Part shown: piece after piece, positions 5,669-61,004 of the stretch | Position numbering within the stretch: the stretch's first letter is position 1 | Layout: the number at the start of each line of letters is the position of its first letter | Assembly: GCF_050320075.1 (NCBI RefSeq) | Contig: NZ_CP190018.1 | DNA from: Escherichia coli | GTDB lineage: Bacteria > Pseudomonadota > Gammaproteobacteria > Enterobacterales > Enterobacteriaceae | Strand: one strand, 5' to 3' | DNA: 64,000 bases | Program-made: the position numbers and the translations under genes | The notes under the pieces: generated by a model | What the model was told of the DNA's origin: nothing | What the model saw: the letters and a program-made list of their open reading frames with translations, nothing else | The model's database searches: none

Positions 5669-5936
5669 CCATTTCCCTTCTCTACGGATGATTTGCTGTT
5701 TTGCAAATCATCCGCTCTAAGATGATTCCTGGTTGATAATTAAGACTATTTACCTGTTATTAACACTCTCAAGATATAAAATTATTATCAGCGATATAAC
5801 AGGAAGTCATTATCACCTGCGTGATATAACCCTGCGCGCGAGCGGATTTCACGGAATAATTTCACCAGGCTTATTCTTAGCTATTATAGTTATAGTGAGC
5901 TTACTTCCGTGAATCATAAATTCAGGAGAGAGTATT

Positions 5937-18881: not shown

Positions 18882-19931
18882 TTACATCAATGGCTTTTGA
18901 CCCCGCTGCCACCAGCGTAGCAACAATCGATCGGCGCTCTCTGCCGCGCTGCCGGTGAATCGGTCAATGAGTCGTTTACGCTGCATATAGCGTACATTGA
19001 CCACTTCACGGCCTTCCATCAGGCTAAGAATAACTTCATCACTGGTGTTGATTTCATCAACCAGGCCTTTCTCTACCGCCTGTTGTCCGTACCAGTGTTC
19101 ACCCGTTGCCACCTGTTCAATATCCAGAGACGGACGCATACGCTTCACAAAATCTTTAAATAACTGATGCGTTTCGTTCAGCTCTTCGCGGAATTTCTCC
19201 CGCCCTTCTTCGGTATTTTCACCCAGCAACGTCAGCGTGCGCTTATACTGCCCGGCGGTGTGCAGTTCGATATCAATATCTTTGCTTTTCAGGAAGCGGT
19301 TAAAGTTGGGCATTTGCGCCACCACGCCAATAGAACCCACAATAGCAAACGGTGCGGAAACAATTTTGTCTGCCACACAGGCCATCATGTAACCGCCACT
19401 GGCAGCAACTTTGTCTACCGTAACAGTTAAAGGAATGTTTTTATCACGCAGACGCTGCAGCTGCGAAGCCGCCAGCCCGTAACCATGCACCATGCCACCA
19501 GGGCTTTCCAGACGTAGCACAACCTGATCCTGCGGTTTGAATGCTGCGAGTACCGCCGTTATCTCTTCACGTAGCGAGTTCACTTCATGGGCGTCCATGC
19601 TGCCTTTAAAATCCAGCACCCAGACGCGAGGTTTACTGTCAGTTGCCACCTCGCCCAGTTTGGCTTTCGCTTTTGCTGCTTTCGCTTCTTGTTTGTGCTT
19701 TTTCTTCTGCGTTTTGTGCCACTGTTTTTGCTGATGAGTGTCCATCAGCGCCGCAGCCAGTTCTTCTTTCATCTCCTTATACTGTTCGCTGATATTGTTG
19801 ACCCGTAACTCGCCACGCTGGCGTTTATTACGTTGAGCAACATTGACAATAATGGCGGCAATCGCCGCAATCGCTAGCACAACGGTAACGATTTTCGCCA
19901 AAAACAAACCATATTCAGACAACAATTCCAC
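18882..19931 (-). CDS. sohB: S49-family periplasmic serine peptidase SohB, 349 aa
   Basis: 349 aa; N-terminal TM helix and signal-peptide-peptidase-like domain. Confidence 0.9.
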   Translation of the reverse strand: MELLSEYGLFLAKIVTVVLAIAAIAAIIVNVAQRNKRQRGELRVNNISEQYKEMKEELAAALMDTHQQKQWHKTQKKKHKQEAKAAKAKAKLGEVATDSKPRVWVLDFKGSMDAHEVNSLREEITAVLAAFKPQDQVVLRLESPGGMVHGYGLAASQLQRLRDKNIPLTVTVDKVAASGGYMMACVADKIVSAPFAIVGSIGVVAQMPNFNRFLKSKDIDIELHTAGQYKRTLTLLGENTEEGREKFREELNETHQLFKDFVKRMRPSLDIEQVATGEHWYGQQAVEKGLVDEINTSDEVILSLMEGREVVNVRYMQRKRLIDRFTGSAAESADRLLLRWWQRGQKPLM

Positions 19932-20150
19932 GAGTCCCCACCTTGGTTAAACAACGCTTTGGCTCACAGTTTACAACAGGCATGTTAAGCCGTCTCGCAG
20001 AGATGTTATTGCAGCGAAAGTATGACAAAGTATCCATTTTGCGGTGTTATCGCCCCAGGCTGATTGAAATGCCCTTCTGTTTCAGGCATAAAGCCCCAAA
20101 GTCATAAAGTACACTGGCAGCGCGACAGACAACGTCGTTGAGGAGTAGCC

Positions 20151-20909
20151 ATGCATTACCAGCCAAAACAAGATTTACTCAATGATCGCATTATCCTAGT
20201 GACGGGAGCCAGCGATGGTATTGGCCGTGAAGCCGCGATGACGTATGCACGCTATGGTGCGACAGTGATTCTGTTGGGCCGTAATGAAGAAAAATTACGT
20301 CAGGTAGCCAGCCACATAAACGAAGAAACTGGACGTCAGCCACAGTGGTTTATTCTCGATTTGCTGACCTGCACGTCCGAAGATTGCCAACAACTGGCAC
20401 AGCGCATTGCCGTTAATTATCCGCGTCTGGATGGTGTTTTGCATAATGCCGGATTGCTCGGCGATGTTTGCCCAATGAGCGAACAAAATCCGCAGGTCTG
20501 GCAGGACGTCATGCAGGTCAACGTTAATGCCACCTTTATGCTCACCCAGGCACTGCTTCCTTTATTACTCAAATCGGACGCCGGTTCACTGGTCTTTACT
20601 TCATCAAGCGTTGGACGTCAGGGACGAGCCAACTGGGGCGCATATGCAGCGTCGAAATTTGCCACCGAAGGGATGATGCAGGTACTGGCCGATGAATATC
20701 AGCAGCGCCTGCGCGTCAACTGCATTAACCCAGGCGGTACGCGCACCGCAATGCGGGCCAGCGCCTTCCCGACCGAAGATCCACAGAAACTTAAAACACC
20801 CGCTGATATCATGCCGCTCTACCTCTGGCTGATGGGCGATGACAGCCGCCGTAAAACCGGCATGACCTTTGACGCCCAACCGGGCCGTAAACCAGGAATT
20901 TCCCAATGA
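20151..20909 (+). CDS. yciK: Short-chain dehydrogenase/reductase family oxidoreductase YciK, 252 aa
   Basis: Rossmann motif TGASDGIGREAA and SDR catalytic region; 252 aa. Confidence 0.85.
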   Translation: MHYQPKQDLLNDRIILVTGASDGIGREAAMTYARYGATVILLGRNEEKLRQVASHINEETGRQPQWFILDLLTCTSEDCQQLAQRIAVNYPRLDGVLHNAGLLGDVCPMSEQNPQVWQDVMQVNVNATFMLTQALLPLLLKSDAGSLVFTSSSVGRQGRANWGAYAASKFATEGMMQVLADEYQQRLRVNCINPGGTRTAMRASAFPTEDPQKLKTPADIMPLYLWLMGDDSRRKTGMTFDAQPGRKPGISQ

Positions 20910-21496
20910 GTGATGAACGCTACCAACAGCGTCAGCAGCGAGTGAAAGAAAAAGTCGATGCTCGTGTGGCCCAGGCCCAGGATGAACGCGGTATTATCAT
21001 CGTTTTTACCGGCAATGGAAAAGGCAAAACCACCGCGGCATTTGGTACGGCAACTCGTGCAGTAGGCCATGGCAAAAAAGTGGGTATCGTGCAGTTTATT
21101 AAAGGCACCTGGCCTAATGGCGAGCGCAATCTACTGGAGCCACATGGCGTTGAGTTTCAGGTGATGGCAACGGGCTTTACCTGGGATACACAAAATCGCG
21201 AATCTGATACCGCGGCCTGCCGTGAAGTCTGGCAACATGCCAAACGAATGCTGGCCGATCCTTCACTGGATATGGTTTTGCTCGATGAGCTGACTTATAT
21301 GGTGGCGTATGATTATTTGCCACTTGAAGAAGTGGTGAAGGCGTTAAATGAACGTCCACATCAGCAAACCGTCATTATTACGGGTCGTGGTTGTCATCGG
21401 GATATACTTGAACTGGCGGATACGGTAAGTGAATTACGCCCCGTGAAACATGCGTTTGATGCCGGTGTAAAAGCGCAGATAGGGATTGACTACTAA
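20906..21496 (+). CDS. btuR: Cob(I)yrinic acid a,c-diamide adenosyltransferase, 196 aa
   Basis: 196 aa; P-loop GNGKGKTTAAFG; start overlaps the yciK stop (ATGA). Confidence 0.9.
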   Translation: MSDERYQQRQQRVKEKVDARVAQAQDERGIIIVFTGNGKGKTTAAFGTATRAVGHGKKVGIVQFIKGTWPNGERNLLEPHGVEFQVMATGFTWDTQNRESDTAACREVWQHAKRMLADPSLDMVLLDELTYMVAYDYLPLEEVVKALNERPHQQTVIITGRGCHRDILELADTVSELRPVKHAFDAGVKAQIGIDY

Positions 21497-21502
21497 GTGA
21501 AA

Positions 21503-21536
21503 GCACCTCAAAAGAAGCCTCTTGAGGTGCTTTAAT
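21503..21536 (+). terminator. Hairpin terminator after btuR, immediately abutting the IS1 left end
   Basis: gcacctcaa aagaagcctc ttgaggtgc followed by ttt. Confidence 0.5.
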
Positions 21537-21592
21537 CGGTAATGGTGCCAACTTACTGATTTAGTGTATGATGGTGTTTTTGAGGTGCTCCC

Positions 21593-21868
21593 GTGGCTTC
21601 CATCTCCATCAGTTGTCCCTCCTGCTCAGCTACTGAAGGCGTGGTGCGTAACGGTAAAAGTACTGCCGGACATCAGCGCTATCTCTGCTCTCACTGCCGT
21701 AAAACATGGCAACTGCAGTTCACTTACACCGCTTCTCAACCCGGTACACACCAGAAAATCATTGATATGGCCATGAATGGTGTTGGATGCCGGGCAACCG
21801 CCCGCATTATGGGCGTTGGCCTCAACACGATTTTACGTCACTTAAAAAACTCAGGCCGCAGTCGGTAA
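21593..21868 (+). CDS. insA: IS1 InsA (transposition repressor / N-terminal part of the transposase), 91 aa
   Basis: [46 protein letters not shown] with a zinc-finger motif; canonical InsA. Confidence 0.9.
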
Positions 21869-22290
21869 CCTCGCGCATACAGCCGGGCAGTGATGTGATT
21901 GTCTGCGCTGAAATGGACGAACAGTGGGGCTACGTCGGTGCTAAATCACGTCAGCGCTGGCTGTTTTACGCGTATGACAGGATACGGAGGACGGTTGTGG
22001 CGCACGTCTTCGGTGAACGCACTCTGGCCACACTGGAGCGTCTTCTGAGCCTGCTGTCGGCCTTTGAGGTCGTGGTATGGATGACGGATGGCTGGCCGCT
22101 GTATGAATCCCGCCTGAAGGGAAAGCTGCACGTAATCAGCAAGCGTTACACTCAGCGCATTGAGCGACATAACCTGAATCTGAGACAACATCTGGCAAGG
22201 CTGGGACGGAAGTCACTGTCGTTCTCAAAATCGGTGGAGCTGCATGACAAAGTCATCGGGCATTATCTGAACATAAAACACTATCAGTAA
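21787..22290 (+). CDS. insB: IS1 InsB frame; expressed as the InsAB' transposase by -1 frameshifting at A6C (21844..21850)
   Basis: ORF overlapping the insA 3' end in the -1 frame; contains [21 protein letters not shown] typical of InsB. Confidence 0.85.
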
Positions 22291-22319
22291 GTTGGAGTCA
22301 TTACCGCTTCAAATGAAGA

Positions 22320-22346
22320 AAAGGCCCCGCAGGGCCTTTATTTTAT
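22320..22346 (-). terminator. Hairpin terminator downstream of rluB (potentially bidirectional)
   Basis: aaggccccgcagggcctt flanked by an A-run upstream and a T-run downstream. Confidence 0.5.
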
Positions 22347-22358
22347 ACTTATCTTAAA

Positions 22359-23234
22359 TTAACCGTTATTATTACGTCCACCAGAACGACGACCGCCGCT
22401 CACCTGACTGTGACGCTTAACCGCTCGACGAATCTGATTCGCCTTCATACGACGACGGTCTTTTTCTACAGCGACTTTAGAGCTGGTTTCTGGCGGTAGC
22501 TCCACCAGTTCGCGCAGATAGTTAGTCTGGGCGAGGTCCAGCTCCGTCCAGCCACCGCGTGGCAGACCTTTCGGCAGTGGGATATCACCGTAACGAACAC
22601 GGATCAGGCGGCTTACCTGCACACCAACCGCTTCCCAAAGACGACGAACTTCACGGTTACGGCCTTCGGTCAGAGTAACGTTGTACCACTGGTTGATCCC
22701 TTCGCCGCCGCTGAACTTGATGGTTTTAAAGGCTGCCGGACCATCTTCCAACTGCACGCCACGACTCAAATCACGCAGTTTCGCGTCGTCAACCTGACCA
22801 AATACACGCACGGCATATTCACGTTCAACTTCACGGCTTGGATGCATTAAGCGGTTTGCCAGTTCACCGTCGGTGGTAAACAGCAGCAGACCGCAGGTAT
22901 TAACGTCCAGACGACCCACGGCAATCCAGCGCGCACCGCGCAGCTTTGGCAGACGGTCAAACACCGTTGGACGCCCTTCCGGATCGTTACGGGTACACAA
23001 CTCACCTTCCGGTTTGTAATAGGCCAGAACGCGACAAATTTGTTCAGCGGACTCACGTACCGAAATAAGGTGACCATCGATACGGATTTTCAATCCAGGG
23101 GTAACTTCAACGCGATCGCCGAGTTTAGCAATTTTGCCATCAACACTCACACGACCGGCTTCAATAATAGATTCGATTTCACGGCGAGAACCGTGGCCGG
23201 CACGCGCCAGCACTTTCTGTAGCTTTTCGCTCAT
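22359..23234 (-). CDS. rluB: 23S rRNA pseudouridine(2605) synthase, 291 aa
   Basis: ORF 22359..23315 trimmed to [21 protein letters not shown] (S4 domain) followed by the RsuA/RluB catalytic domain; Arg/Gly-rich C-terminal tail. Confidence 0.9.
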
Positions 23235-35427: not shown

Positions 35428-36066
35428 TTAAAAACGATATCCTGCTGAGAACATAAACACCCACGGATCGAGGCGTACGCTATCGTGTTGCTGTGCACCG
35501 CCCAGTTTATAATTGGCGGTGGTATCAATATCCATGTACCACACTGACATGTTAACCAACCAGTCACGGTTAATCAGATAATCAACCCCCACCTGCCCGG
35601 CAGCTCCCCAGGAGTCTTTAAGACTGAGATCGGAAAGCCCCGCCTCTTTGCCATGATCGTTAAATCCATTATCAAAGAAGGTGGTGTAGTTAATACCTGC
35701 ACCAACGTAAGGACGGAATTTGCTGCTGGCATCACCAAAATACCACTGCGCCATCAGTGTTGGCGGCAGATGATGAACGGTTGCAATATCGCCGGTCGCC
35801 CGGGTGCCGATTTTATGGCGGAACGGCGTCGCTGCCAGCAATTCCACACCAATGTTATCGGTCGCCATATAAGTAAACGTCAGGCCCAGTTGCGTGTTAT
35901 TGGTCACGCTGAATCCACCCAGACTTCCTAACGTACCACCAGCACCTTCTGTTGGACGTACGGTTGCAGACCCTGCACGCATAAAAAATTCGCCTGCTTC
36001 ATGCGCATAGGCACTGCCAGAGAGAAGAGTTGTTACTGCCAAAGCCGCCACTGTTAACTTTTTCAT
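35428..36066 (-). CDS. ompW: Outer membrane protein W, 212 aa
   Basis: Signal peptide MKKLTVAALAVTTLLSGSAYA and beta-barrel ending in the aromatic residue F (…SAGYRF). Confidence 0.9.
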   Translation of the reverse strand: MKKLTVAALAVTTLLSGSAYAHEAGEFFMRAGSATVRPTEGAGGTLGSLGGFSVTNNTQLGLTFTYMATDNIGVELLAATPFRHKIGTRATGDIATVHHLPPTLMAQWYFGDASSKFRPYVGAGINYTTFFDNGFNDHGKEAGLSDLSLKDSWGAAGQVGVDYLINRDWLVNMSVWYMDIDTTANYKLGGAQQHDSVRLDPWVFMFSAGYRF

Positions 36067-36214
36067 ATCCGCTCCGTCGTTATGGTTATAAAAACGTGAC
36101 GAATATACCTACATTGGAGTAACAAATGATCCTACATAGATCACATTACATATGATAATTCACCATTTATTGATCTGGATTAATTTAGAAGTTGCATTGA
36201 GAATCCTGGTTAAT

Positions 36215-36229
36215 GTGATTTAAATCAAT
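36215..36229. promoter_or_regulatory. FNR/CRP-like palindrome in the ompW upstream region
   Basis: gTGATttaaATCAat, a perfect palindrome with FNR-like half sites, about 150 bp upstream of the ompW start codon. Confidence 0.35.
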
Positions 36230-36422
36230 TTTTAAATATTTTCGCTACGCAAATATTAACTCGTTCGCCACTTGCCGCGGTTTGCCCACGCCTGAAGGCC
36301 AGCAATTACCTCCGCTTTACAAAGATATGCTTTTCCATACAAGACCTGATGCTGCCACCCGAGGCTTAACCAGGGTACAATTGCCCGCTAATTAACACCT
36401 GCATAAAACTCAAGGAGAGTGC

Positions 36423-60265: not shown

Positions 60266-60350
<85 letters not shown>

Positions 60351-60384
60351 TCTCAAGCATTACCTCAAAATTTGAATTACCCCT

Positions 60385-60469
<85 letters not shown>

Positions 60470-61004
60470 TCACTTTCAAAAGTCCGTGAACTCTCAAACG
60501 AATCCGCGATTAAATATTCTGCCCATGCGGGGAAGGATGAGAAGCTTCGACCAAGGTTCGACTCGAGCGCCAGCGAGAGAGCGTGGCCGCAGGCAACGAC
60601 CCGAAGGGCGAAGCGCGCAGCGCTGAGTAATCCTTCCCCCACCACCATAACTTTCAAAAGCCCCGGAATTCTCAAACGAATCCGCAATCAAATATTCTGC
60701 CCATGCGGGGAAGGATGAGAAGCTTCAACCAAGGTTCGACTTGAGCGCCAGCGAGAGAGCGTTGCCGCAGGCAACGACCCGAAGGGCGAAGCGCGCAGCG
60801 CTGAGTAATCCTTCTCCCACCACCATCACTTTTCAAAAGTCCGTGAACTCTCAAACGAATCCGCAATTAAATATTCTGCCCATGCGGGGAAGGATGAGAA
60901 GCTTCGACCAAGGTGCGACTCGAGCGCCAGCGAGAAAGCGTTGCCGCAGGCAACGACCCGAAGGGTGAAGCGCGCAGCGCTGAGTAATCCTTCCCCCACC
61001 ACCA
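60470..61004 (+). repeat. rtT: Three tandem 178/179-bp tRNA-derived repeats distal to tyrV (rtT RNA / tpr region)
   Basis: Units 60470..60647, 60648..60825 and 60826..61004, each ending with the tRNA-Tyr 3' segment aatccttc[c/t]cccaccacca; a partial fourth start follows. Confidence 0.85.
60525..60626 (+). CDS. tpr: Arg-rich protamine-like small ORF (Tpr-like), 33 aa, in repeat unit 1
   Basis: Hand translation [33 protein letters not shown]; unit 2 copy has a premature stop, unit 3 copy is a 28-aa variant. Whether it is translated cannot be judged from sequence. Confidence 0.4.

Follow-up and report, generated by a model that had tools for sequence, protein, structure and literature searches.

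The earliest descriptions of adjacent deletions by IS1 date from the 1970s and concern the gal region, and iso-IS1 types have long been known in Escherichia coli, K-12 itself included. Members of the IS1 family are about 768 bp long and carry imperfect terminal repeats of about 23 bp that start with GGT(A/G)ATG, overlapping insA and insB' frames with an A6C frameshift, a combination of zinc ribbon, HTH and DDE domains, and a flanking duplication of 8-9 bp. When an insertion sequence is found without direct repeats, three standard causes are considered: the duplication may have decayed, two IS copies may have recombined, or an adjacent deletion may have occurred (PMC11708052). Deletions of the last kind start precisely at a terminus of the element, which is then no longer flanked by direct repeats, and they are described as typical of IS1 and Tn9 (reviewed in PMC9330008).

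The locus described here is a textbook case of an IS1-associated deletion, and as such it represents a phenomenon that is already known. The same configuration is also already present and annotated in RefSeq genomes. What it offers is a clean natural example, with breakpoints that can be placed to the base and a near-isogenic relative, U1, in which the deletion is absent. Two accessory genes have been removed between cobO and rluB, and these two neighbors and their hairpins have been left intact.

The element occupies positions 21538-22305 of the window, which is the entire 64,000-nucleotide stretch of E. coli DNA that was analyzed. A first-pass annotation of the window had reported an IS1 copy here, and all of its coordinates and quoted sequences proved to be correct. 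The copy is a complete IS1 of 768 bp on the plus strand, recognized as such by Pfam, NCBIfam and PGAP, and belongs to a non-K-12 iso-form whose insA to insB direction is the same as that of cobO. It begins with GGTAATGGTGCC and finishes with GGAGTCATTACC; its first bases are GGTAATGGTGCCAACTTACTGAT, and its right end, when inverted, reads ATCAGTAAGTTGGAGTCATTACC. The terminal inverted repeats are 23 nt long and match at 20 of 23 positions, with the left repeat (IRL, inverted repeat I1) at 21538-21560 on the plus strand and the right repeat (IRR) at 22283-22305 on the minus strand. A consensus scan located a promoter-like site in and adjoining IRL (GTGCCA, a 16-nt spacing, then TATGAT; 21545-21572, plus strand), which we take to be the position of the IS1 insA promoter.

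The coding content of the element is equally complete. The open reading frame list gives insA as a 91-aa frame with a GTG start (21593-21868, plus strand), followed by the insB' frame, which carries the DDE transposase domain and runs from 21847 to 22290 after the frameshift (within the plus-strand open reading frame 21787-22290). The A6C motif for -1 programmed frameshifting (AAAAAAC, 21844-21850, plus strand) is intact, as had been claimed, and both frames are open, as is the 232-aa InsAB' fusion that was rebuilt across it. This fusion contains all three IS1 Pfam domains, Zn_ribbon_InsA, HTH_Tnp_IS1 and DDE_Tnp_IS1, the last of which spans residues 102-232 (E = 2e-74). The Pfam scores, all over their cutoffs, are 68 bits for PF03811, 98 bits for PF12759 and 248 bits for PF03400, and the NCBIfam IS1 equivalog NF033558 scores 247 bits against a cutoff of 100. 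PGAP labels the element "IS1 family transposase, programmed frameshift" in the annotation of strain YZLc1-3. The length, the repeats, the frame overlap and the domains are therefore those of the IS1 family, and the flanking duplication is the one family feature that the window copy lacks.

The first-pass annotation had also assigned the element to a divergent iso-IS1 lineage on the basis of its left end, and the K-12 terminus that it quoted for comparison, CCAGTGGCTTCTGTTTCTATCAGCTGTCCC, agrees with MG1655 IS1A. Indeed, near-identity to the K-12 copies was not found: the element differs from IS1A (MG1655 19796-20563) at 52 of 768 nt, an identity of 93.2%, and IS1A has an identical second copy in MG1655, at 3583428. 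The two elements share their 768-bp length, the insA, A6C and insB' layout, similar terminal repeats and a 232-aa fusion protein. They differ at two positions of the left terminal repeat (GGTAATGG in the window versus GGTGATGC in IS1A), at 11 of the 232 InsAB' residues (221 identical), and at two residues of InsA.

A search of 5,426 complete E. coli genomes yielded 749 records with copies that are at least 99% identical to the window element. Copies that PGAP labels as IS1F-type are 95-96% identical to it, those of the IS1X3 type 93.9%, and those of the IS1A type about 93%; unlike these types, the window variant is named by PGAP only generically, as an IS1 family transposase. Copies that are 100% identical reside at other sites with fresh duplications in EC488, AZ 187 and HUM3355, and one is also carried by the plasmid NZ_CP023827.1. 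From the 749 records and the identical copies at unrelated sites, we take the window element to be a common, recently mobile iso-IS1 of a non-K-12 lineage, not an exotic one. Because it is 100% identical to copies elsewhere, this IS1 must be young. Its intact frames and frameshift site, together with the identical copies elsewhere, predict that it is probably active.

Among complete genomes, the junctions of this IS1 are restricted to a single clone. Of the 5,426 complete genomes, only YZLc1-3 and Ec-U3 have them in common with the window. YZLc1-3, from chicken faeces in China, differs from the window at 6 positions in 64,000 (NZ_CP123240.1, 2836742-2900741), and between the window and Ec-U3, from human urine in Burkina Faso, there are 7 differences in 35.5 kb of shared sequence. 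The IS1 junction can be used as a clone-specific marker for the YZLc1-3/Ec-U3 lineage. No other transposase or integrase is present in the YZLc1-3 annotation across the window, so the earlier statement that this IS1 is the only mobile element in the window holds.

The absence of a clean target-site duplication had been noticed in the first pass, and it is genuine. The window IS1 is flanked by GCTTTAATC on the left and GCTTCAAAT on the right, which form no direct repeat; the two 9-mers share only their first four bases, GCTT. Seven other IS1 insertions in this neighborhood served as controls, and all seven have perfect duplications of 8-9 bp: AACTTAACA in MS 21-1, TTATTTTA in EC488, CAAGTGTG in AZ 187, CAGATAGG in NR1442, CAGTAAAAG in HUM3355 (in yciQ), and TAACCCACT and GGAAGTTTT for copies a and b in AF10. 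The lack of a duplication at the window copy is therefore real and specific, and does not arise from the way in which the boundaries were called. Because identical copies elsewhere possess 8-9-bp duplications, the lack reflects the history of this particular copy and not the type of element. The simple insertions in EC488, AZ 187, NR1442, MS 21-1, AF10 and HUM3355 involve the same or a related IS1 and the same AT-rich target region, and they retain both the perfect duplications and a cassette of DNA between cobO and rluB, whereas the window copy has neither.

The nature of this cassette became apparent from comparisons with IS-free alleles, an approach that the first-pass annotation had proposed. 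K-12 was examined as the empty-site reference and rejected. As that annotation had supposed, there is no IS1 at the K-12 site; the cobO-rluB spacer of W3110 is only 39 bp long (L005:1573-1611) and contains a single hairpin. In blastn comparisons, similarity to K-12 ends at the cobO stop codon (21496) and returns at the rluB stop codon (22358), and the 39-bp spacer is unrelated to the flanks that adjoin the IS. A query made by joining the two flanks into a presumed empty site was covered to at least 80% by no genome, and therefore a simple empty site does not exist. E. coli strains differ in their cobO-rluB spacer, and comparison with K-12 would therefore yield the wrong empty site.

The relevant empty site is instead the cassette-bearing allele, represented by U1 (NZ_CP041359.1). 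To the left of the IS, this genome and the window agree in 4,552 of 4,553 bp, and to the right of it they agree in 6,111 of 6,113 bp. This amounts to three SNPs over 10.7 kb, and the 400-bp flanks on either side of IS1 are 100% identical. The match breaks exactly between 21537 and 21538 and between 22305 and 22306. Precisely between these two IS1 junctions, U1 holds 1,447 bp (L004:4554-6000) that are missing from the window. The window IS1 lacks a duplication because it is standing in place of this cassette. Whatever the route, the U1 alignment leaves us almost certain that IS1 replaced the cassette.

The short sequences that adjoin the IS carry the same message. On the left, 41 bp (21497-21537) match U1 and end at the left breakpoint (U1 L004:4553); no similarity between them and the 39-bp spacer of K-12 could be detected. 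On the right, the U1 match resumes at 100% at 22306, the right breakpoint (U1 L004:6001), and continues through a 52-bp stretch (22306-22357) up to 22358, where K-12 similarity begins. Both sequences exist only in the cassette allele and not in K-12. We interpret the 41 and 52 bp as the remaining ends of the cassette-bearing allele, to which both of the IS-adjoining hairpins belong. Full-length copies of the cassette occur in 425 of the 5,426 complete E. coli genomes (about 8%), and partial or divergent forms in up to 1,235 of them. Its wide distribution marks the cassette allele as the ancestral state for the window clone.

Given that 1,447 bp are missing, the first-pass proposals of an adjacent deletion or of recombination between IS1 copies are favored. 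We give about an even chance to the former, in which IS1 inserted at a cassette border and an intramolecular replicative transposition followed. In the first step, one border of the AT-rich cassette would have received an IS1 insertion, with the usual 8-9-bp duplication. Intramolecular replicative transposition would then have linked an end of the IS to a target site at the opposite border, and the DNA between, including one copy of the duplication, would have been lost as a circle. The expected outcome is a single IS1 between unrelated flanks, with the cassette gone and the neighboring genes and hairpins intact. As in the IS1 and Tn9 adjacent deletions (PMC9330008), the endpoint at this locus coincides to the base with the end of the IS, the IS itself remains in place, the direct repeats are absent, and the deletion is of kilobase size. 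Unlike those deletions, the event in the window is inferred from its end product alone; the replacement of the cassette is read directly from the alignment, whereas the route by which the cassette was lost is something we infer.

The first alternative is that two IS1 copies of the same variant once lay in the same orientation at both borders, and that RecA-dependent recombination removed the cassette along with one IS1. The product would be a single IS1 bordered on its left by the flank of copy 1 and on its right by that of copy 2, which is exactly the structure observed, and recombination between IS copies is listed as a frequent cause of missing duplications (PMC11708052). The locus is also a demonstrable hot spot for IS1, with at least seven independent insertions in about 1.6 kb. 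A precursor of the required type is present in AF10, at other sites within the cassette, where two direct IS1A copies lie 791 bp apart, each with a perfect 9-bp duplication. However, this route requires two insertions plus a recombination, three events in all, compared with two for an adjacent deletion, and IS1 at either exact border plus the cassette was seen in none of the 5,426 genomes. We therefore hold it only tentatively, as a possibility of appreciable weight.

Four junction types are possible at the locus, in which the cobO hairpin is joined to IRL, IRR is joined to GCTTTAATCATGATT, ATCATGCTTCAAAT is joined to IRL, or IRR is joined to the rluB hairpin. The exact intermediate, with IS1 at either border and the cassette present, was found neither in the 5,426 complete genomes (by ranking of full loci and by two synthetic-junction queries) nor in JGI metagenome contigs (by two exact-junction scans), which together are a sparse sample. 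Likewise, the ranking and the synthetic-junction queries revealed no pair of direct IS1 copies at these two borders among the complete genomes. Two genomes that reached at least 80% coverage in one of the synthetic-junction queries were rejected as intermediates. In EC488, the 100%-identical variant has the orientation of the window copy and lies 32 bp to the right of the right junction of the window, and in MSB1_4I the matching pieces span 931 bp.

Alternatively, IS1 may have inserted inside the cassette, after which one adjacent deletion and then another, proceeding from opposite IS ends, extended to the present borders. Most of the IS1 insertions at the locus are indeed internal to the cassette, and stepwise growth of IS-adjacent deletions has been documented in the Lenski long-term lines (PMC11708052). 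We regard this route as unlikely, since it requires three events, nothing in the sequence demands it, and the full-locus search of the 5,426 genomes revealed no relatives with partial deletions.

Less likely still is a single step in which a DNA break captured IS1 as the deletion formed, with neither staggered target cleavage nor duplication. An IS that is centered in a deletion and has no duplication is a pattern discussed in PMC11708052, and capture in one step is compatible with the absence of intermediates, but such an absence in a sparse sample is weak support. Moreover, the process is hypothetical; it has been proposed for some IS5 and IS481 events and not shown for IS1, and every case of an IS plus a deletion that could be traced in time in the same study was an insertion followed by an adjacent deletion (PMC11708052).

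Two further explanations have almost no probability. Flank decay, the remaining origin offered in the first pass, would make this a simple old insertion whose 9-bp duplication was eroded by point mutation, and the shared GCTT hints in that direction, but it is excluded by 400-bp flanks that agree with U1 at every base, by the 1,447 bp that separate the two 9-mers in that genome, and by the youth of the IS1 itself. An assembly artefact would mean that the cassette is present but concealed by an IS1 repeat that was collapsed or misjoined. IS copies do have a classic role in misassembly, but the same junctions appear in YZLc1-3 and Ec-U3, two independently sequenced genomes from different continents, as well as in the source of the window.

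The functional change in the window strain comes down to the loss of the two genes of the cassette. In U1, these are hypothetical genes on the minus strand that encode proteins of 102 and 333 aa, the larger of which has a lipoprotein signal (…LLMLSGC). The GC content of the cassette is 30-42%, versus 50-56% in the surrounding DNA. Neither protein has a significant match in Pfam, PADLOC or NCBIfam, and a homolog search returned solely entries named "hypothetical protein" from Escherichia and Citrobacter. An AlphaFold model of a cassette protein, built from a 13-sequence alignment, has a mean pLDDT of 48.6, which is too low for a fold search. More broadly, two forms of the cobO-rluB spacer exist in E. 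coli: the 39 bp with one hairpin seen in K-12, and an AT-rich insert of 1.54 kb that carries the two orphan genes. There is also a divergent allele of the cassette, for example in ST131 JJ1886, of which only the promoter-proximal 330 bp are held in common at the megablast level.

The IS1 hot spot formed by the cassette region, as sampled among complete genomes, includes insertions in both orientations and of at least two IS1 variants. Neighboring sites can be as little as 10 bp apart, as illustrated by MS 21-1 (U1 5709-5717) and AF10 (U1 5719-5727). In NR1442 (L008:4769-5368), IS1 is located in the last codons of cobO, which is annotated with a length of 600 nt instead of 591. In that strain, cobO thus tolerates an alteration of its C terminus, or at least survives it.

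Although the deletion itself has little importance beyond bookkeeping, an orphan cassette that is repeatedly targeted by IS1 is a mildly interesting by-product. We consider it improbable that the repeated hits and the deletion reflect selection for inactivation of the cassette, or alternatively that the event in the window was an insertion that deleted DNA in one step and made no duplication. Selection could be contrasted with the view that IS1 merely likes AT-rich DNA. If it were at work, the cassette, an AT-rich module of a lipoprotein gene and a small-protein gene confined to Escherichia and Citrobacter, would be more than a passive casualty.

The genes on either side of the element are intact in the window. 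Upstream lies cobO (also called btuR; 20906-21496, plus strand) and downstream the convergent rluB (22359-23234, minus strand), both taken from the open reading frame list and both with the same coordinates in YZLc1-3. As described in the first pass, IS1 sits between two hairpins. The first, an intact hairpin with a 15-bp stem (21500-21533; inverted repeat I2), separates cobO from the former cassette and stops 4 nt before IS1. It folds with a predicted energy of -19.1 kcal/mol (z = -4.0), and a terminator scan called it on neither strand; because it is without a proper T-run, it is not a canonical intrinsic terminator in either direction. The second, downstream of rluB (22320-22339, minus strand), begins 14 nt after IS1 and is an intact, bidirectional terminator-like hairpin by folding and by the terminator scan of both strands, with a AAAGGCCC/GGGCCTTT stem followed by a T-run. 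The first-pass annotation had suggested that the insertion could affect 3'-end formation of both genes. Because both hairpins and the T-tract of rluB are untouched, such an effect on cobO or rluB appears unlikely. An Rfam scan of positions 21000-22800 returned no credible RNA family.

Homology between the target and the IS end has been reported for IS1 hot spots. At this locus, the left arm of the cobO-side hairpin (21502-21513, AGCACCTCAAAA) matches IS1 positions 41-52 perfectly over 12 nt in inverted orientation. These positions correspond to 21578-21589 of the window (TTTTGAGGTGCT) and overlap the insA ribosome-binding site. The right arm (21522-21531) is a direct 10-mer match to the same stretch of IS1. 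A 12-mer match was reached in just 7 of 500 shuffles of the 200-nt flanks. For an RNA that runs from cobO into IS1, the long-range pairing (-33.9 kcal/mol) is predicted to be preferred to the local hairpin (-19.1 kcal/mol). The match could be due to chance, or it could represent target-to-IS-end homology of the kind found at hot spots.

Elsewhere in the window, ompW is intact (region 35428-36395), whereas in Ec-U3 the gene is truncated by a lambdoid prophage inserted in it. A YkgJ-family pseudogene fragment adjoins ompW at 36306-36395 in the YZLc1-3 annotation. The same annotation places two tandem tRNA-Tyr genes at about 60266-61004, followed by three tandem 132-nt RtT repeats, an ordinary-looking example of the known tyrT-tyrV-rtT arrangement.
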